Positions 3,371 through 58,502 of a DNA stretch of 60,047 nt are shown here, in pieces. A model generated the notes under the pieces. That model was not told the DNA's origin. It worked only from the letters and a program-made list of their open reading frames with translations, and did not search any database. This DNA is from a virus. Lineage: Duplodnaviria > Caudoviricetes. The stretch spans positions 1-60,047 of IMG/VR virus record IMGVR_UViG_3300044823_000503; one strand, given 5' to 3'. Numbering within the stretch: the first letter of the stretch is position 1; every line of letters starts with the position of its first letter. A program made the position numbers and the translations under genes.

Positions 3371-4054
3371 ATGGCTGGCTACCCGCCGGGGACGAAACTG
3401 CGTTGCACGGGCTGCGGTCGCGAGGACTATGCCGCCCGCATCCTCCGCCACCAGGGCAACACGAAGAACTGTGAGAACGCGGAGGTGGAGGTGGTGCGGG
3501 GACCGATGCAGCGGGGCCGGCCGCTGGGGGTGCCCAGCACCCTGCCGGAGCAGATCACTGGCGAGAGCTCGGGCGGCGCTGCACCTGATCCGCCGCCCGA
3601 GCCACCCGACGACCCGCCCGCGACAGCGCCGCCCCCCCGTCAGCAGGGGCCTCGGCCGGCCAGTGAGGCGCCGCCCCGGGTGCCGCTGAGCCGCTCCTCC
3701 GCGAAGGGCCGCGACGACGACGACGAGCCGAGTGGGGCGATGGGTGTGCAGGGCAAGCTCCACACCGAGTCCTGGCCGGTCGCCGAGGATGCCCGGGTGC
3801 GGATCACCTGCTATGTCCTCCCCGAGACATTTGCCCTGATAAACGCGATCATGAAGGCCGGTGAGGATCTGCCCATCCTGGACGAGGTCAGCTATGGCGG
3901 TGTGTTCGACGCCGTCATGGTCGGATTCATGGCCCAGGCGGGCGGCGTGGATGCGGAGGGCAATGTGTACGGGTATGAGGTGGGTCTGATCCGTCAGCTG
4001 ACGGCGCGGCGGCCGCTCGTGGTGGCGCCGGCGGGAGCGAGGTTGCCGATATGA
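3371..4054 (+). CDS. Hypothetical protein with N-terminal zinc finger
   Basis: CTGC...H...C motif, Pro-rich linker. Confidence 0.65.
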   Translation: MAGYPPGTKLRCTGCGREDYAARILRHQGNTKNCENAEVEVVRGPMQRGRPLGVPSTLPEQITGESSGGAAPDPPPEPPDDPPATAPPPRQQGPRPASEAPPRVPLSRSSAKGRDDDDEPSGAMGVQGKLHTESWPVAEDARVRITCYVLPETFALINAIMKAGEDLPILDEVSYGGVFDAVMVGFMAQAGGVDAEGNVYGYEVGLIRQLTARRPLVVAPAGARLPI

Positions 4055-5157
4055 GCGAGCCCAGGGTCAAGCGCTGGCTGCGCGACCGGCCTCTCTTCCC
4101 GATGGTGGATGCCACCCAGGCCGGGCCGGTGATCCCGGTGGCCGCGGGCCCCCCCCCGCAACTGTCGGCGCGGGAGTTCCGGGAGCAGCAGCGTGCTGAG
4201 GACGAGGCCGAGGAGGAGGCCGCTGAGCGCGCTGGCCGCCGCCGCCTTCGCCAGTTGGAGCAGCGGGTGGCCGAGGCCCGCGCCCTGAAAGCGCTGGAGC
4301 GCATGAATGGCGACGCCGATCCCCAGGGGGGCGCCATCGCCCAGATGCTGGGCCAGGTGCTGCAGGAGATCCGCTCGGACCGCCAGGCGCTGACGGAGAC
4401 GATCAAGGGCTTCACCACGGGCCAGCAGGACGCCCAGGTCCGGACCCTTCAGACGGGCATGGACAAGCTGGACGCTCGCTTGGCGGAGTTGCTCACCGGC
4501 CGCACCACGGCGGCGGCCCAGGTCTCGCCCATCCAGGCGCTGACGGCCAACGCCGCCGAGATGAAGCAGGCCAAGGACGCCCTCCTGGAGGTGTTCGGGC
4601 TGACCCCGGCGGTCGGTGAGGGTGCGCCGGGGGGGGCGAGCGGCGATGTCCGGACCATGAACCGCGAGGATGCGATGCGCTGGCTCTCCATCGAGGAGGA
4701 GGTCGCGGACAGGCGGGCGGAGCGGATTGAGCGACGGGAGCAGCGGGACTGGGAGAAGGAGCAGGTGCGCAAGGAGTTCGACCTCAAGCGCGATCGGCTC
4801 GACCGCGCCTTTGGCAAGCTCGATCAGATCGCCGTGCCGGCGCTGGCGCTCCTCTTGGGCGACCGGGTCAAGGGACTGTTCGGTCCCAAAGGCGAGGCCG
4901 CCGCGGAGGCGGATGGCGAGGGTGGCGAGCCCATGGGCCGCTGGCAGTGCGACAACTGCGGGCTGATCCAGCCCCACCGCTTGAGCGACACCGAGGTCAG
5001 CTGCACCCAGTGCGGGCAGCCGTCCACGCTCCGTCCCCGGGACACCCCGCCGTCAGCTGCGCTCCAGGTGGTGGACGGGGGCCAGGCATCCCCGCCGCCG
5101 GCAGCGCCACCGCCACCCGAGGTCGATGACGGCGACGATGGCTGGACCGGCCAGTGA
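4051..5157 (+). CDS. Coiled-coil protein with C-terminal zinc ribbon
   Basis: E/R/Q-rich helices, CDNC...CTQC. Confidence 0.75.
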   Translation: MSEPRVKRWLRDRPLFPMVDATQAGPVIPVAAGPPPQLSAREFREQQRAEDEAEEEAAERAGRRRLRQLEQRVAEARALKALERMNGDADPQGGAIAQMLGQVLQEIRSDRQALTETIKGFTTGQQDAQVRTLQTGMDKLDARLAELLTGRTTAAAQVSPIQALTANAAEMKQAKDALLEVFGLTPAVGEGAPGGASGDVRTMNREDAMRWLSIEEEVADRRAERIERREQRDWEKEQVRKEFDLKRDRLDRAFGKLDQIAVPALALLLGDRVKGLFGPKGEAAAEADGEGGEPMGRWQCDNCGLIQPHRLSDTEVSCTQCGQPSTLRPRDTPPSAALQVVDGGQASPPPAAPPPPEVDDGDDGWTGQ

Positions 5158-21152: not shown

Positions 21153-21707
21153 TCAGAGGATGCCAGGTGCCGAGACGACCATCCCCGTAACCCCCGGGCA
21201 GGCCGTCCCACAGGCGCAGCCGCCGATCCCGTTGAGGCAGAAGACGCACGAGCCGCCGACGATCCCCGGGCCCACGCCACCACCCGGGCAGCACTGCGCT
21301 TGGCACCCGGTGATCTCAGGCGGCGTCCAGGTGGTGGAGGTGCAGCCCGGCTGGCCCGCGAAGTGGATCGAGCCGGGGGGGCAGCAGCCCCAGAGGTTGA
21401 GACCCGGCCCCATGTCGCTGTACGGGCCGCTGTAGTCGCCGCAGTCGCCCGTGCCGGTGCACTCGCAGGGGCAGGGGTACGGCTCGTCGGCGGCGAGCGC
21501 GCAGACCGGCCCCATCTGCTCATACGTTTGCCCGGGAACATTGACTCCGGTGCCGACCTGTTCCCCGGTGTAGACCTGGCCCTCGGGGCAGCAGCCGCCC
21601 GGGGGCGGAGAGGGCGGCGCGGCACCTCCGCTGATCGCCGCCGCGGTCACCAGGACGGCCACTAGCGCCCCCCCTCCGATGAGGGCGCCCTTCTCCACGC
21701 GATCCAT
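21153..21707 (-). CDS. Cys-rich membrane-anchored protein, ends VSAPGIL
   Basis: N-terminal TM segment, about 17 Cys; leaderless after the conserved promoter. Confidence 0.7.
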   Translation of the reverse strand: MDRVEKGALIGGGALVAVLVTAAAISGGAAPPSPPPGGCCPEGQVYTGEQVGTGVNVPGQTYEQMGPVCALAADEPYPCPCECTGTGDCGDYSGPYSDMGPGLNLWGCCPPGSIHFAGQPGCTSTTWTPPEITGCQAQCCPGGGVGPGIVGGSCVFCLNGIGGCACGTACPGVTGMVVSAPGIL

Positions 21708-21714
21708 GTTCCGC

Positions 21715-21748
21715 ACGCTACCAGCCGCCCCATAGCGGCAGGGAGATC
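21715..21748 (-). promoter_or_regulatory. Viral promoter GATCTCCC-N20-TAGCGT
   Basis: ATG follows 7 nt after the -10. Confidence 0.7.
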
Positions 21749-22112
21749 GGAGGACGGGTTGGGCCGGTTCGTCGGAGAGGGCAGGACCGGATCGTCAGCA
21801 TGGAGAGACATGGTGCGTCGGCATGGGTATGGCATGGACTGTCGGGCCGGGCGGGGGTTGGAACGGAGCGTCGGGTGTGGAGAGGAAGGGGAGGGATCGT
21901 CGGGGCGGGACGGCTTGGATCGTCGGGATGGGTGGGGGTGGTGCGTCGGGATGGTTCGGCAGGGACTGGCGTGGACCGTCGGCTGGGTGTGGACAGGTTC
22001 GTCGGGTAGGGGCGGGTTGAGACGGTTTGTCGGATGTGGTATGGCATGGATCGTCGGATGGGGTCGGATGGGGCAGGTCGGGTGCGTCGGGTGCGGCGTG
22101 GGCTGGAGCGTC
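21749..22112 (-). ncRNA. Array 1: 14 units of GAC-(NNN-CC)4-6, putative guide RNA array
   Basis: + strand GTC at 21771, 21794, 21817, 21841, 21870, 21899, 21922, 21945, 21978, 22001, 22029, 22053, 22086 and 22110, separated by GGNNN pentamers. Begins at the stop codon of the RAMP gene. Confidence 0.8.
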
Positions 22113-22761
22113 AGACCGGCCCGAAGCTGTCGATGGTGAAGGTGCCCGACCCCTGCGAGCGGTCACTGCCGATGCCGTTGAACCTCATGTACTCCAGCAT
22201 CGCCTCCAGCTGCTCCTGCGACCCCACCTTGCTGACGCCGTCGTCCAAAACCCGGATGGTGAACGTGAGCGGCACGTTGTCGGCGTACTCGAAGCGCTTG
22301 ATCGAGGTCCGAGGCCCCTGCATGGTCATCACCGTGAGCGGCCTGTCGTCCACCTGGACCGGAACGGTGATCGCGACCACCTTCTCCAGCACGAAGATCC
22401 GCTCCGCCACCTTGGACCGGAACGCCTTGACCCCGAGCGCATCCTTCAGGATGTTGGCCGCCTCTTTGAGCGCCCCCTTGAGGCAGCGCCCCTCGTACCC
22501 GGGGGTGCCGTCCGGGAGGCGGTAGAAGACCACCCCGTGGATCTCCTCGGCGCTCAGTTGGGCGGCCGTGGCGGCGTGCTCCTCGCGGGCCGACGACGGC
22601 GTGAGCGGCACGTCGGCGAGCTCCGCCGGCATCTCGGCCGGCACCTTCATGCGGGCCGCTCGCGCCTCCAGCCAGCTGTCCAGCATCTTCTCCTTGGCGG
22701 GCACGCCGGCGACCAGGCGGTCGACGGTGATGCTGAGCGAGTAGTCGATCCAGGTGAACAT
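22111..22761 (-). CDS. Stand-alone Cas7/Csm3-like RAMP protein
   Basis: GTPGYEGRCLKGALKEAA matches the RAMP 'IPGSSLKGALR' motif; C-terminal Gly-rich loop GIGSDRSQGSGTF; AAGGAGG RBS. Confidence 0.8.
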   Translation of the reverse strand: MFTWIDYSLSITVDRLVAGVPAKEKMLDSWLEARAARMKVPAEMPAELADVPLTPSSAREEHAATAAQLSAEEIHGVVFYRLPDGTPGYEGRCLKGALKEAANILKDALGVKAFRSKVAERIFVLEKVVAITVPVQVDDRPLTVMTMQGPRTSIKRFEYADNVPLTFTIRVLDDGVSKVGSQEQLEAMLEYMRFNGIGSDRSQGSGTFTIDSFGPV

Positions 22762-22799
22762 GGTTTCCCTCCTTGGGAGATTGAGGATCTGGGCCGGGG

Positions 22800-23153
22800 T
22801 CAGTCCCCCGGCGCCTCCGAAAAGTCAGGGGACAGGCTCGCCGTCCAGAGCCCGAGATCCTCCACATGGCAGCTAAACCCGCTGCTCTGCAGGGGGCCGG
22901 GTGACACCAGCCTCACCACGGGCTCTCCAGGAACGACCAACCTCCCAAAGCTGCCTTCGCTCCAGGAATCTGGCGCGGCGAGCGATGCGACGATGACCCG
23001 CAGGCCGACCACGGCGCCGGGCAGCAGCCCCAGGCTGCGCATGTCTGCACACCGCTGACAGCCATCCTCTGGGCTCGGCTCTGGGCCGCCGTATGATCTC
23101 TGGCCGCACTCGGTGCAGTGGGTTGTCCATTGGCGACCGACCTCAAGAGACAT
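22800..23153 (-). CDS. Zinc-finger hypothetical protein
   Basis: CTEC...CQRC, GGAGG RBS. Confidence 0.55.
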   Translation of the reverse strand: MSLEVGRQWTTHCTECGQRSYGGPEPSPEDGCQRCADMRSLGLLPGAVVGLRVIVASLAAPDSWSEGSFGRLVVPGEPVVRLVSPGPLQSSGFSCHVEDLGLWTASLSPDFSEAPGD

Positions 23154-23554
23154 GACCTCTGCATCCTCCCTATATCACGGTTCCCCGACTCCTCAGCCTG
23201 AGGGACGTTGTCGTCCGGATGCGCCTCCTGGATCGCCTGCAGGCCAGCCGCGAGGCCGCCCTGGTACGCCCGCTCCCACGATTCCTGGGCGGCGCGCCGC
23301 GCACCGCTCTCAGTCGCCAGCATGGCCTCCACCGTGAGAGTTGGCGGCACGATACCGAAGAGGAGGGCGAGCACCTCATGGCCGGCCTGGTCGAACGCCC
23401 TCAGGTACGGCCTCAACTCCTCGGGGCAACGGTCGAATGTATCGAGGAACAACCCGCCCGTTTGGACGTGCAGCACGCTCCCTACGGTGTCCAGGAATTT
23501 GTGCCGGCTGGCCTCGAAGCTCTGGATCACCAGCATACGGTCGTGGTCGGTCAT
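22913..23554 (-). CDS. Hypothetical protein (3' part overlaps the next gene)
   Basis: GGAG RBS; first ~125 aa look protein-like. Confidence 0.5.
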   Translation of the reverse strand: MTDHDRMLVIQSFEASRHKFLDTVGSVLHVQTGGLFLDTFDRCPEELRPYLRAFDQAGHEVLALLFGIVPPTLTVEAMLATESGARRAAQESWERAYQGGLAAGLQAIQEAHPDDNVPQAEESGNRDIGRMQRSCLLRSVANGQPTAPSAARDHTAAQSRAQRMAVSGVQTCAAWGCCPAPWSACGSSSHRSPRQIPGAKAALGGWSFLESPW

Positions 23555-23666
23555 CGGATCGTCTCCATTGCTCGAAAGGGCACGATCTCCCGGCGTCGGG
23601 AAACGCTCGGTGACCGCACCCCCGCCTCATCATCCATCCCGATCTCTCCCAAAGCGTCGGATTTTA

Positions 23667-23710
23667 CCGTCGGGAATCATAGCGCACTCCCCGACGGATT
23701 GCCGTACACT
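23667..23710. promoter_or_regulatory. Divergent promoter region with an 8-bp inverted repeat
   Basis: CCGTCGGG...CCCGACGG (23667-23697); -10 TATGAT on - (23676-23681); -10 TACACT on + (23705-23710). Confidence 0.55.
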
Positions 23711-23719
23711 TTCGGCCGT

Positions 23720-23861
23720 GAAGGCTCACCCCGCTCCTCACACCGACTCTCCCAGCCACCCCACGCCATTCCAGGACGACGTACCGCCCCGCCCCATCCC
23801 AGGCCGACTATCCGACCCGACCCGGACTGACAGACCGCCCCACTCCATGCCGATCCGCCCC
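23720..23861 (+). ncRNA. Array 2: 4-5 units of GAC-(NNN-CC)4-6
   Basis: GAC at 23745, 23778, 23806 and 23829 (units of 33, 28, 23, 33 nt); starts about 9 nt after TACACT. Confidence 0.75.
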
Positions 23862-24029
23862 GGGGGTCGCCCCGGCCAGGTCGTCCCGCGCAGCGGCATC
23901 TACGGCGCCGGGGGCCGGGAGACAACGCTCCGGCGCGGCGTTCGCTTCCCCCCCTGCCCCCCGGGGCTGACCTGGGAGCCGGTGCGCGTCACCGGCGCAG
24001 AGCAGCATCGCCAACCCCCGGCTGGCTGA
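23847..24029 (+). CDS. YjzC-like small protein
   Basis: PGQVVPRSGIY...ETT...GVRFPPCP...W. Confidence 0.6.
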   Translation: MPIRPGGRPGQVVPRSGIYGAGGRETTLRRGVRFPPCPPGLTWEPVRVTGAEQHRQPPAG

Positions 24030-24868
24030 TGGCGGCCGATACCTCCACTGCGGCCCACCCGCGGCGATACACCGAGGCGGAGCTCGTCCAGATGCTCCGC
24101 AAGCGCCACGCCCGGCTGGGCAACGGGGGATCGGGGGAGTACGCCTTCCTGACCCAGGTGCGCGACGCGGCCGGCTTCTACGGCTCCCGGACCCTGGACG
24201 TGGTCACCCTCAGCCTCTGGCCGTCGCGGGGCATGGAGCTCCACGGCTATGAGGTCAAGGTCAGCCGGGCCGACTGGATCCGCGAGCTCCATGAGCCCGC
24301 CAAGGCGGAGGCGTTCGTCCAGCGGCTCGACCGCTTCTCCCTGGTCGTCGCCGACGAGGCCATGGTGGCTCCCGGGGAACTACCGCCCGGCTGGGGGCTG
24401 ATGGCAGTGCGGGGCGGCCGCCTGGTCACTGTGGTGCAGGCCCCCAATCTCCGCCGGGGAAAGGAGCCGCCGCCGGTCAGCCGCTCCTGGCTGGTCTGTC
24501 TGCTCCGTGCTGCCGGCGCCGTCCCCGAGGTCGACCCTGCCGAAGCCCGGGCCGCCCGCGATGAGGGCTTGGCGGCGGGGCGCTCTCAGGCGGAGCGTGA
24601 GGTGGTCAACCTCCGGGCGGAACTCGGGAATGAGAGAGGGCGGAGGGAAGAGGAGGCCGCCGCCCGCCGCGCCGTCTTCCAGGCGCTGGGCATCGGCGGG
24701 ACCGGAGGCCATGAGGTGGAGGCGCTCCAGGCCATCGCCAGCGCCGTCCGCACCGTGGTGGTCGCCGATCACGGCGTGGAGACGGCCAGGGCGCGCCTCG
24801 AGGGCCTCGCGAGTGTCGCTGAGGACTGCGCCCGCCGACTGCGCCAGGGGATCGAGGCCGCACAGTGA
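24029..24868 (+). CDS. MmcB-like PD-(D/E)XK nuclease with coiled-coil tail
   Basis: RTLDVV..LWPSRG..LHGYEVKVSRADW...ELPPGWGLM. Confidence 0.75.
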   Translation: MAADTSTAAHPRRYTEAELVQMLRKRHARLGNGGSGEYAFLTQVRDAAGFYGSRTLDVVTLSLWPSRGMELHGYEVKVSRADWIRELHEPAKAEAFVQRLDRFSLVVADEAMVAPGELPPGWGLMAVRGGRLVTVVQAPNLRRGKEPPPVSRSWLVCLLRAAGAVPEVDPAEARAARDEGLAAGRSQAEREVVNLRAELGNERGRREEEAAARRAVFQALGIGGTGGHEVEALQAIASAVRTVVVADHGVETARARLEGLASVAEDCARRLRQGIEAAQ

Positions 24869-25458
24869 GCCTCATCGGCTACGCCCGCGTGAGCAAGGAC
24901 GATCAGAACATCAACCTCCAGGTGGACGCGCTGCGCGCCGCCGGCTGCGACGCCATCTTCACCGAGTGGGCGAGCGGCGGCGACCTCAAGCGTCCCCAGC
25001 TGCGCCTCTGCCTAGAGACGGTCGGGCCCGGCGACACCCTGGTCGTCTGGAAGCTCGACCGCCTGGGCCGCTCCCTGCGCCAGCTCATCTTCCTGGTCCC
25101 GGAACTGGACGCCCGAGGGGTGAAGGTGCGCTCGCTCACCGATCCGTTCGACACGAGCAACGCCGCCGGCCGGTTCCAACTCGGGATGCTCGCTGTCCTC
25201 GCCGAGTATGAGCGCGACCGAATCCGTGAGCGCACCAAGGCCGGCCTCGAGGCGGCCGCCCGCCGCGGCCACCGGCCCGGGCGCCACCGGGTGATCTCGG
25301 ATCGGCGGCTTCAGGTGGCCCAGGAACTCATCGCACGCGGCCAGTCGGTGGCGGAGGTGGCGCACTCCATCGGGGTGGCCCGCACTACCCTCTACGACGC
25401 CCTCAGACGCTCTCTGGAGGGCAATGATATACATGGCTCACCCGGTGCTGGGCTATGA
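24865..25458 (+). CDS. Small serine recombinase (resolvase/invertase)
   Basis: IGYARVS..DQ...RPQL...GDTLVVWKLDRLGRS...ERT..GL; C-terminal HTH. Confidence 0.95.
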   Translation: MSLIGYARVSKDDQNINLQVDALRAAGCDAIFTEWASGGDLKRPQLRLCLETVGPGDTLVVWKLDRLGRSLRQLIFLVPELDARGVKVRSLTDPFDTSNAAGRFQLGMLAVLAEYERDRIRERTKAGLEAAARRGHRPGRHRVISDRRLQVAQELIARGQSVAEVAHSIGVARTTLYDALRRSLEGNDIHGSPGAGL

Positions 25459-29380: not shown

Positions 29381-30365
29381 TTACCCTTCGGAGGAAGCGG
29401 CCACCGAGGGGCGGCAGGTAGGCGGCTCAGGGTTCGTTGTCGACTATCCGACAGGTGTGACCGATTGGCGCGTTCGGTATGTAGTCACCTGTAAGCACGT
29501 TGTTGAGGGGGGCGGCCATTGGGTGCGGCTCAACCATCAGACGGGCACGCATATCGTTCACATACCTCCCGTACCTCCCGACGGCCCTAACCCTGACCAC
29601 TGGGTGCCCGCTCCAGGCGACGATGACTTTGAGGTTGCCCCCCTTCGGCTTCCCAGCCATGTCGCGCCGTACGCACTTGAGTTGGATGTTGTCGCTCTGA
29701 CTCAGGAGAAGGCCGTCGCCTTGAAGGTTGGTCCTGGTGACGAGGTGTACATGGTTGGTAGGCTTCTTGCGCACGCTGGGCGGGTTACTAACAATCCCGT
29801 AGCGCGCTTCGGGAACGTCTCCCTCATGCCCAACGTAAAGGAACTGGTGCGCGACGGTAGGGGAAAGGACGTTGAGGCGTACCTGATCGAGATGCGGTCA
29901 CATGCCGGCTTCAGTGGCTCTCCAGTCTTTCTCCTTATCCCGCAGGGGACGTTCCGGGGCGAGATCGGTGATACCTCATTGGAGGATCAGTACACGCGCT
30001 TTCGCCTGTTGGGGATTGACACGGGGCACAAGCTGGATCACCTAGATGTGCTCTCCCGCACGTCAAGCGGCTGGGAGAAGCGCCCTGATCTCGACGTGGA
30101 GCACTTCACGGACGTTGCGGTCGTGGCGCCGATTTGGAAGGTGGTGAATCTGTTGGAACGGGGGGACTTCGCTACGGAACGCCTACGAATAGGAAGAGAA
30201 ATGGAGAGATTGCGTGGCAATGAGCGGGCCGTCTCGGATGTGGCTTCCGATGGCTCCGAGTTCGCTCGGTTCCAAGAGTTGACGAGCAAGCTCCTGGAGG
30301 TCCCGAAGACAGAGCTGGATGCCAAACTGCGAGCGGAGAAGGGTGACGATTCTAGCGCCCAGTAA
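29381..30365 (+). pseudogene. 5'-truncated trypsin-like serine protease (IS passenger)
   Basis: GGSGFVV...VTCKHV...GFSGSPVF. Homology continues upstream of the first start codon (29457). Lower GC. Confidence 0.6.
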
Positions 30366-31275
30366 GCTCCGCGTAGGTGAGGCGTCGGCCAGCCGCCATG
30401 CTCAGGACGGCGGCGAACCTGCCCAGGTCGGTGAGGTCACGCATGTTGTATGTGAACACGCGCTCATCCAGATACCGAAACAGATGGAAGGGCTCGACGC
30501 TCACGTAGGTACCGTGCAGACCCCGCTTGAGCAGGCTCCAGAAGTTCTCGATCCCGTTGGTGTGAACCTGGCCGCGGACGTAGCACTCGGCATGATCGAC
30601 GGTCTCGTGGGTGAACTCGCCAGCGAGACCAGTGTAGGAGTCGAGCGCGTCCGTGTAGACGGTGGCACCGGGAGCGACGTGCTGCTGGACGTGGCGGTGC
30701 AGGGTGGCCCTGGTGCGGTCCGGGATCACGGCAGCGCGGACCGCGCCGGGGCGCTGGAGAACGCCCGCGACCGCAGCCTTGTCCATCCCGCCCGTGCCGT
30801 GGATCTTGCGGATGCGGTCGGTCTTGTGCATGTTCCGGGCCTTGCCACCGATGAAGGTCTCATCGACCTCAACGGTGCCGTCGAACTTGTCGAAGCTGCC
30901 GGTCTGCATCGCCAGCCGGATGCGGTGGAGCATGAACCAAGCCGACTTCTGAGTGACCCCAAGAGCGCGGGCCAACTCGTGCGACGAGATGCCGTTCTTG
31001 GAGTTGGCGATCAGCCAAACGGACGGAAGCCACTTGTCCAGGCCGAGCGGCGAGTCCTCGAAGATCGTGCCCACCTTGACCGAGAACTGCTTCTTGCACG
31101 CCTTGCACTTCCACAGGCGGCGGGTGCTTAGGTATGAGAGCGCCGTCCCGTCGCAGCGCGGGCAGACCGGGCCGGTCGGCCAGCGGAGGCCAGCCAGGAA
31201 CTCGGTGCCAACGTCCGGGTCCGAGAAGTAGCGGATCGCCTGGAGGAGGGTGGTGGGGAGGTCTTTCCTTGCCAT
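30352..31275 (-). CDS. IS1595-family transposase
   Basis: RWPTGPVCPRC...CKAC zinc ribbon; VEVDETFIGG; YTD; HTNGIENFWSLLKRG; YLDE. Confidence 0.95.
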   Translation of the reverse strand: MARKDLPTTLLQAIRYFSDPDVGTEFLAGLRWPTGPVCPRCDGTALSYLSTRRLWKCKACKKQFSVKVGTIFEDSPLGLDKWLPSVWLIANSKNGISSHELARALGVTQKSAWFMLHRIRLAMQTGSFDKFDGTVEVDETFIGGKARNMHKTDRIRKIHGTGGMDKAAVAGVLQRPGAVRAAVIPDRTRATLHRHVQQHVAPGATVYTDALDSYTGLAGEFTHETVDHAECYVRGQVHTNGIENFWSLLKRGLHGTYVSVEPFHLFRYLDERVFTYNMRDLTDLGRFAAVLSMAAGRRLTYAELTGR

Positions 31276-58121: not shown

Positions 58122-58254
58122 ATAGCCAGGCTATGGCGATATAGCCAGGCTATGCATGCCCAGTGCCCAGGCTATATCGTCTCCATAGCCTGGCTATGGT
58201 GAATTCAAACCCTGCTTCCATAGCCTGGCTATGAAGGCTCCATAGCGTGGCTAT
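58122..58254. repeat. Six copies of the palindrome ATAGCCWGGCTAT
   Basis: 58122, 58141, ~58165 (partial), 58185, 58220, 58242 (1 mismatch). Confidence 0.9.
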
Positions 58255-58502
58255 ATCGCCATCCTGACATGCCCAAACGGAGCGAACATCCTCACACCTT
58301 GGAAATCAAACGCGTCACGGTCGTATTCGGCTTACACCTTGCAACCCTTGGAAGGCATTTAAAGTGCTTACGCGCACCCATGCGGGCAGGGAGAACCGAC
58401 CAATGCTGAGAGCCGCTGCGAAGAGAGCCATTAATAGGCCCGGTCGCTGTTTTGACTGTATGCCGATCTCAGAAGGCAGCCCGTCAGGGGCCAAGGGTTG
58501 CC

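Follow-up and report, generated by a model that had tools for sequence, protein, structure and literature searches.

What does a stand-alone Cas7-like RAMP gene do in the genome of a phage, and why is it flanked by short, punctuated repeats with a rhythm of five nucleotides (nt)? The question is raised by positions 21,749 to 23,861 of IMGVR_UViG_3300044823_000503 (Duplodnaviria; Caudoviricetes), a complete virus record of 60,047 bases with a GC content of 70%, which was analysed over its whole length and is referred to below as the window. VIPR systems, described in a series of 2026 preprints (10.64898/2026.04.26.720920, 10.64898/2026.04.26.720927, 10.64898/2026.10.15.759431, 10.64898/2026.10.21.760802), combine a RAMP protein, Vipr, with RNAs built on a 5-nt repeat (vrRNAs), as far as the accessible parts of these sources go. 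An earlier note on this DNA, made from the letters alone, had pointed to a likeness to VIPR, and this likeness is borne out by the preprints (10.64898/2026.04.26.720920). We propose that the locus is best explained as a VIPR-type RNA-guided DNA-silencing system of a phage in which the C-rich strand of the repeats is the guide, and we give this joint explanation a probability of about 0.5. Its basis is a RAMP gene standing alone in a virus record devoid of cas genes, the flanking arrays with two fixed and three free letters per repeat, and a repeat grammar that is kept while the letters change.

A RAMP gene between two pentanucleotide arrays

The three elements on which the argument turns are the following.

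22111..22761, minus strand: vipr-like gene encoding a 216-residue single-RRM RAMP of Cas7/Csm3 fold (open reading frame, structure model, Foldseek)
21756..22114, no strand assigned: array 1, 360 nt, about 11 full units of 23-33 nt plus short degenerate units near the gene (motif and period counts)
23745..23861, no strand assigned: array 2, four runs of the array 1 type, inverted relative to array 1 (GG on the minus strand, CC on the plus strand)

The open reading frame (ORF) 22111-22761 has a GC content of 0.63/0.44/0.96 at codon positions 1/2/3, and a Shine-Dalgarno-like AAGGAGG, a strong ribosome-binding site, lies 7 nt 5' of its ATG. Both RAMP motifs quoted in the earlier note are present in its 216-residue product, the G-loop reading G-I-G-S-D-R and the thumb being a long beta-hairpin. 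The protein is recognised by neither Pfam nor PHROGs. Its AlphaFold2 model, computed from an alignment of 39 homologues, is confident (pLDDT 86.9, pTM 0.79) and displays strand 1, a helical insert (24-75), a helix (91-109), a long hairpin (136-173), a second helix (182-195), the G-loop (196-206) and the last strand. Foldseek, run with this model, placed type III Csm3 and type VII Cas7 at the head of 142 matches (E<=0.001), Csm3 6ifl_F being the first of all (E 9.3e-8). VIA-align against representative structures superimposed 156 residues on Csm3 9g9a_D (Z 10.5, root-mean-square deviation 3.3 A), and each of the 14 chains at Z>=8 comes from a CRISPR effector complex. A profile search of the PDB with the vipr family likewise returned RAMPs only (Csm4, 3.7e-4; type VII Cas7, 5.3e-4). 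We are therefore confident from the model that the protein has the RAMP/Cas7 fold that had been foreseen. The gene also appears to be the only one of its kind in the virus: no Cas family was found among 54 + 4 window ORFs searched against Pfam or among 27 ORFs searched against PHROGs, and the 60-kilobase (kb) window contains no CRISPR-like spaced repeat and no 25-40-nt repeats with spacers, in agreement with the claim that it holds no other cas gene or CRISPR array. Rfam detected no family and no ribozyme in 21400-24200, hence no hammerhead like those in some published arrays.

On the plus strand, a unit of array 1 consists of GTC followed by four to six GG NNN blocks; on the strand of the gene (minus) it reads as four to six NNN CC blocks followed by GAC. 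Sixteen GTC[GA]G marks are found in 21771-22110 (plus strand), spaced by 23, 23, 24, 29, 29, 23, 23, 33, 23, 28, 24, 10, 14, 9 and 24 nt, and the final one of these (22110-22114) spans the stop codon of vipr (22111-22113). The array had been described as a 360-nt, period-5, GAC-cut stretch that begins at the stop codon, and this description stands; for the 14 units we count about 11 full ones plus short degenerate ones, and for the 'about 59 of 63' conserved blocks 55 of 59 in which GG is retained, read as CC on the strand of the gene, including four blocks of six letters. Three measures place the period-5 signal far above chance. Runs of at least four GG at 5-nt spacing occur 14 times on the plus strand of the whole window, nine of them within 21774-22106, and eight times on the minus strand, three of them within 23751-23861. 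The pattern of at least three GGNNN followed by GTC is found 20 times (12 in array 1, four in array 2 and four elsewhere), compared with 4.6 +/- 1.9 and a maximum of 8 in 50 shuffles of the whole window; the four extra matches are at chance level, and no orphan array was thus detected elsewhere in the window. The power of GG at period 5 peaks at 15.2 at position 21981, whereas its median over the window is 1.8 and its 99th percentile 6.4. Tandem Repeats Finder reported only fragments of the arrays. The possibility that the arrays are coding sequence was considered and rejected: their units do not have lengths divisible by 3, and the GC signal at third codon positions (GC3) is absent from every frame. 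Array 2, which falls inside the range given in the earlier note but was not treated there as a separate array, is located in a divergent intergenic region, with the vipr operon on one side and the gene 24029-24868 (plus strand) on the other; it is missing from the 88%-identical relatives, which have instead a 510-nt segment between two conserved blocks.

The grammar is kept while the letters change

Homologues of the vipr protein number 44 at E<=0.001 in 90% clusters, none of which bears a Pfam domain, and 615 cluster representatives of similar size were found at E<=1e-3. The comparison covers 69 related loci, five from metagenome-assembled genomes (two labelled Dormibacteria) and 64 from IMG/VR viral contigs. 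In an 88%-identical phage, the GTC-GG grammar of the array is retained and the free letters are entirely different. Over 195 runs from 17 loci, the entropy of all three free positions is 1.97-1.99 bits, the first being at 1.97, which upholds the claim that all three vary. In these runs the last GG is followed by three free letters and then by G (174), T (155), C (163) and G (140), and GTC is followed by GG in 91. Of 375 intervals from one GTC mark to another, 269 have a length of 5n+3 or 5n+4. The mark itself (GAC or GTC, depending on the strand), which the earlier note had singled out, is conserved across the clade, and the array grammar holds over 0.51-0.71 GC and 30-88% protein identity.

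Five near-identical copies of the 88%-identical phage show no vipr difference over 651 nt. Relative to L001, L007 and L010 carry three substitutions within 6 nt of one array unit (3783-3788), all at free positions; L008 has no array substitution, and L006 has six more near its contig end. The substitutions among L001, L007, L008 and L010 look like a naturally re-aimed guide. Other relatives display larger arrays. L059 has a 1.2-kb array (3400-4640) with runs of up to 11 repeats, the mark GTCG and units of 5n+4. The arrays of L014 (1030-2930 and 4920-6000) cover about 1.9 kb upstream and 1.1 kb downstream. In L016 (0.53 GC), three long palindromes built on CAATGGCCATGGCCATTG occur in 1400-1960, before each repeat cluster of the array; these could be processing hairpins or protein sites.

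The gapped-pattern search for targets that the earlier note had envisaged came back empty. When 75 script-extracted units were compared under 12 decoding rules with 625 kb made up of the window, three related phages in full length and the remaining loci, no target was found, and the matches showed no excess over those of shuffled guides. Nor was there an excess for 17 hand-listed units under six rules, two 5-periodic rules matching only the arrays themselves, or for pairs of adjacent units with gaps of 0-9. This search has low power, because published targets sit in competing elements and not in the phage itself.

The type of G-loop is coupled to the array strand

Which strand of the arrays would be the guide? 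The related loci were sorted by G-loop motif (24 x-D-R, 36 Q/R-[WFY]-R and 9 unclassified) and runs were counted up to 1.5 kb away from the gene. On the strand of the gene, 18 of the 24 x-D-R loci carry three or more C-rich runs, so that homologues too stand beside period-5 arrays, and none of the 24 carries three or more G-rich runs. In the available DNA of the remaining six x-D-R loci, arrays are scant or absent: downstream DNA is missing for L009 and amounts to 327 nt for L020, and 0-1 runs were counted in L003, L004, L015 and L033. Conversely, a C-rich run was found in only one of the 36 Q/R-[WFY]-R loci, as a single run. A cruder measure, phase occupancy, agrees: the base kept at a fixed phase of 5 nt is C for 15 of 17 x-D-R loci and G for 23 of 31 aromatic loci. 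The type of G-loop and the strand of the array are thus strictly coupled across the clade. Neither this coupling nor the C-rich gene-strand arrays of the clade are found in the text of the preprints, figures and supplements aside.

In the structure of SUSP1 Vipr, W178 stacks on G2 and D177 bonds G1, according to the portion of the source available (10.64898/2026.04.26.720927). These residues align with D200 and S199 of the window protein, respectively. Position 200 is E, N, L, K or another residue in 41 further family members (alignment A2) and may, judged from the sequences, be specificity-determining. In the same alignment, residue 92 also differs by group, being Arg in 42 of 47 x-D-R proteins and Tyr in four of five aromatic-type proteins.

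The layout of the loci points in the same direction. In six lineages (the window, the L001 group, L002, L016, L041 and L059), the array starts only 0-12 nt past the stop codon, which leaves no room for a terminator or promoter. Past the array, the next coding-like ORF has the same direction as vipr in 13 of 16 loci, one of the 13 being doubtful. The C-rich strand folds worse than its shuffles in seven of seven array segments (z +0.27 to +1.92), the G-rich strand in two of seven, with predicted energies of -42 to -67 kcal/mol per 150 nt for the latter. The C-rich strand of array 2 is co-oriented with the coding-like ORF that replaces this array in relatives. Pattern scans for promoters and terminators around the arrays of the window, L013, L016 and L011 found no sites beyond shuffle expectation, the promoter scan covering the sigma-70 consensus only, and the distal ends of 15 arrays have no consistent T-tailed hairpin on either strand. 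Because of the link between strand and G-loop, the abutment to the stop codon, the co-directional genes and the weaker folding of the C-rich strand, we lean slightly, at roughly 55:45 within the VIPR reading, towards the C-rich, vipr-co-transcribed strand as the putative guide, which makes this strand an even-odds proposition overall.

Alternative explanations

Several observations weigh against the proposed explanation, and most of them favour the same VIPR system read with the G-rich strand as the guide (NNNGG, staggered), each guide ending in GUCG with its last G beginning the next guide. Array 1 guides would then come from a distal promoter of their own, convergent with vipr, and array 2 would be co-directional with vipr. 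Every experimentally mapped vrRNA is G-based, and the alternative repeat is given as NNNGG and not CCNNN in the accessible text of 10.64898/2026.04.26.720920, where staggered 1-nt overlaps are described as well. The GTCG-G junction seen here fits such an overlap: G follows GTC in 140 of the 195 runs and GG in 91, as a shared G would have it. The distal flank of the array is conserved between the window and the 88% relative and the degenerate short units cluster at the gene-proximal end, two features which suit a distal leader for the G-rich strand. In L013, a hairpin followed by a T-run, read by eye, lies on the G-rich strand at the gene-proximal end of the array. The three substitutions between near-identical relatives fall on both positions read by the canonical G-strand frame (chance ~0.3). 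The fold asymmetry is due in part to G-U pairing, and the SUSP1 control is uninformative (z +0.53 and +0.38 on the true strand). Arrays 1 and 2 are moreover opposed, so that a single genome can have arrays in either orientation with respect to vipr. However, a G-rich guide needs, in no fewer than 12 of 16 loci, an antisense unit inserted between genes that share one direction, with no spacer before the vipr stop codon; it leaves the link between G-loop type and array strand unexplained; strong folding is predicted for G-rich RNA from these high-GC phages; and no promoter-like site was found in a scan for the sigma-70 consensus only. We regard this alternative as a serious one, at somewhat less than even odds. 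A further set of results weighs on the assignment to VIPR itself, in that the match to SUSP1 Vipr is weak. It reached E 0.01 (alignment A1) and E 4.8e-4 with a probability of 32% (alignment A2) in hhalign, over the C-terminal 45-48 columns only; an hmmsearch of PDB sequences hit SUSP1 Vipr (36pp) only at E 1.4, and a profile search of the SUSP1 genome with the vipr family matched nothing. A tblastn search of phage records with the window protein and one distant homologue did not reach SUSP1 either.

Two explanations outside VIPR are far less probable. The arrays could be elements acting at the level of DNA, such as protein-binding iterons or G-quadruplex tracts that regulate neighbouring genes, the RAMP having another RNA partner or role. 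Four GG tracts with 3-nt loops, which make up the commonest unit, are the minimum for a two-tier G-quadruplex, and the empty target search would be in keeping with this. Such elements are nevertheless improbable in view of the co-occurrence of the arrays with the RAMP family over a wide range of identity and GC content, the near-maximal entropy of the free letters within a fixed scaffold, the restriction of changes among near-identical phages to free letters, and the action of the published VIPR family as an RNA-guided system. Alternatively, a lone Cas7 captured by a phage and a degenerate CRISPR array could be what is left of a decayed or minimal CRISPR-Cas system. The best structural matches, type III Csm3 and type VII Cas7, would be those of such a remnant. 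We consider this the least probable of all the explanations, and very improbable indeed: repeats of CRISPR size with spacers and a second cas gene are both lacking, the 5-nt rhythm resembles no CRISPR repeat, and a family with 615 similar-size cluster representatives, whose related loci lie in viral contigs in 64 of 69 cases, does not look like an isolated relic.

Proposed mechanism and meaning

By analogy with the published type II system, Vipr protomers would polymerise on the repeat RNA with one protomer per pentamer. Pockets of the protein would hold the fixed letters and, again as in type II, the free letters would be displayed for discontinuous pairing. The partner in this pairing would be the double-stranded DNA of a competing mobile element, the transcription of which would then be blocked. 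What may be specific to the clade is the origin and the reading of the guide. The C-rich guide of array 1 would be made as a 3' extension of the vipr mRNA and that of array 2 from a rightward promoter of the divergent region; cutting at the GAC marks would release guides of 23-33 nt with four to six repeats, each about one helical turn of the filament. The fixed CC would be read by a remodelled G-loop. A large clade would thus have swapped the fixed RNA dinucleotide GG for CC, with an x-D-R loop that has Asp in place of the guanine-stacking aromatic residue; together with the making and cutting of the guides just described, this is a tentative proposal that falls just short of an even chance.

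VIPR is a newly described and very compact RNA-guided DNA-binding system, which has been proposed as an ancestor of CRISPR effectors. The locus adds to it a well-preserved member from an uncultured high-GC soil phage, the close relatives of which are found in contigs binned with Dormibacteria genomes. It also reveals regularities of a clade: GTC-marked units with lengths of 5n+3 or 5n+4 nt, arrays that start from the stop codon, and a residue of the G-loop, at a position that contacts the fixed bases in the solved structure, that is tied to the strand of the repeat. If the guide is C-rich, the protein-RNA recognition code of the family would be more plastic than the characterised examples, which is relevant to orthogonal VIPR tools, and the switch to CC would give the non-contiguous VIPR code a second alphabet, complementary to the first. 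Should the guide be the G-rich strand instead, the locus would be an ordinary member with an unusual convergent layout.

Setting of the locus in the virus

The 60-kb record encodes tail-fibre, endolysin, DNA-invertase, methyltransferase and AAA-ATPase genes (PHROGs, Pfam). Two further features lie between vipr and array 2.

23593..23720, minus strand: conserved non-coding block of 128 nt (86% identical in relatives, flanks differ)
22800..23554, minus strand: two overlapping ORFs upstream of vipr (no known family, not conserved in relatives)

The conserved block contains a TATGAT box and a ribosome-site-like GGGAGAG stretch, and a small ORF starts inside it. The vipr operon probably has its promoter and 5' leader here, and the block may serve as a divergent promoter region too; these roles are deduced, since the promoter scan gave no sigma-70 consensus. 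Downstream of it, ORF 22913-23554 (minus strand) has a coding signal only as far as about 23200 (frame-specific GC3), and ORF 22800-23153 (minus strand) contains a CxxC...CxxC motif. Neither matches a family in Pfam or PHROGs or has a tblastn match in 66 related loci, and neither is a recognisable vap gene, because they belong to no known family and are not conserved. Two different small ORFs occupy their position in relatives. A 28-codon ORF (23551-23637, minus strand) starts inside the conserved block, and its stop codon overlaps the ATG of 22913-23554 (ATGA). The equivalent start opens a 151-residue ORF in relatives, and the coding signal downstream of 23551-23637 switches frame near 23200. 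Such an arrangement suggests that a cassette was swapped, that two genes overlap or that there is a frameshift.

On the other side of array 2, 24029-25458 (plus strand) encodes a match to a phage 'DNA repair protein' (phrog_14517, 9.8e-39; phrog_5429, 2.7e-22) followed by a serine DNA invertase (Resolvase, 4.5e-43), and both genes are kept beside vipr in the 88% relatives. Past array 1, a Cys/Gly/Pro-rich ORF of 187 residues (21153-21716, minus strand) starts 40-55 nt beyond the array, in the same direction as vipr; neither Pfam nor PHROGs assigns it to a family, tblastn gave no match in the related loci, and its 5' flank is conserved. Further away, 30352-31275 (minus strand) encodes an IS1595-family transposase (DDE_Tnp_IS1595, 2e-39, plus a zinc ribbon) within the phage genome, related phage proteins being listed in PHROGs with no assigned function. 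Near the right end (58182-58273), three copies of a palindromic element of ~18 nt (TCCATAGCCTGGCTATGG and variants), 35 and 22 nt apart, look like repressor operator sites.

Comparison with known systems

The protein shares its fold with type III Csm3/Cmr4 and type VII Cas7 (VIA-align Z from 10.5 to 9.2, Foldseek E ~1e-7), together with the G-loop motif, and by analogy it would, like them, polymerise on a guide RNA in steps of a fixed number of nucleotides. Unlike CRISPR types III and VII, the locus has no Cas10, Cas5, Cas6 or Cas11 and no CRISPR repeat, its step is 5 nt instead of 6 nt, and its context is viral. Several defining features of VIPR are found here: a single-RRM RAMP with G-loop and thumb, the absence of cas genes and CRISPR, carriage by a phage, and flanking pentanucleotide repeats, the consensus being NNNGG and not YNNGG; the relationship to a published Vipr protein is marginal.

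Among characterised systems, SUSP1 (VIPR type II; NC_028808.2, PDB 36pp) resembles the locus, as far as its description was available, in its single-RRM RAMP of ~200 residues, which has a G-loop, a thumb and, following strand 1, a helical insert, and in repeat tracts that flank the gene on both sides with a 5-nt rhythm. The two differ in most other respects. SUSP1 guides have 9-16 YNNGG repeats and a structured tail of ~40 nt each, are G-rich on the strand of the gene and are accompanied by a vap1 gene. Here the units have four to six repeats and abut without a tail, Y is not preferred, no accessory gene is conserved, the G-rich repeats of array 1 lie on the strand opposite vipr, and the G-loop is S-D-R versus D-W-R. 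The locus is therefore not of the SUSP1 type.

Closer parallels come from the other preprints, cited here from their accessible parts. Non-canonical VIPR arrays have been retrieved with a genomic language model, including C-containing cores such as GAC/NN and CAC/NN (10.64898/2026.10.21.760802). They share with our locus Vipr-like folds beside 5-nt arrays with fixed letters other than GGY, but they have three fixed and two free letters and about 10 repeats, whereas ours are short, punctuated runs of repeats in which two letters are fixed and three are free; the text of that source names no CC/NNN example. The nearest relatives in print are the NNNGG repeats and abutting 'staggered' arrays with 1-nt overlaps (10.64898/2026.04.26.720920), the staggered arrays being presented there without small-RNA-seq confirmation. 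They have in common with the locus a small phage RAMP without cas genes, flanking GG pentamers with variable letters, and abutting guides without a long tail. The text of that preprint gives neither the strand of the arrays relative to vipr nor a GTC mark, and the clade described here is not confirmed among its seven VIPR types. Systems without a second gene are also on record (10.64898/2026.04.26.720920, 10.64898/2026.04.26.720927, 10.64898/2026.10.15.759431, 10.64898/2026.10.21.760802). The earlier note had called the locus a distinct variant, a claim largely anticipated by the NNNGG and staggered arrays (10.64898/2026.04.26.720920) and by the non-canonical letters (10.64898/2026.10.21.760802). 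Judged from its sequence, the locus is a VIPR system and, because all three are already in print, a further example of a published class.

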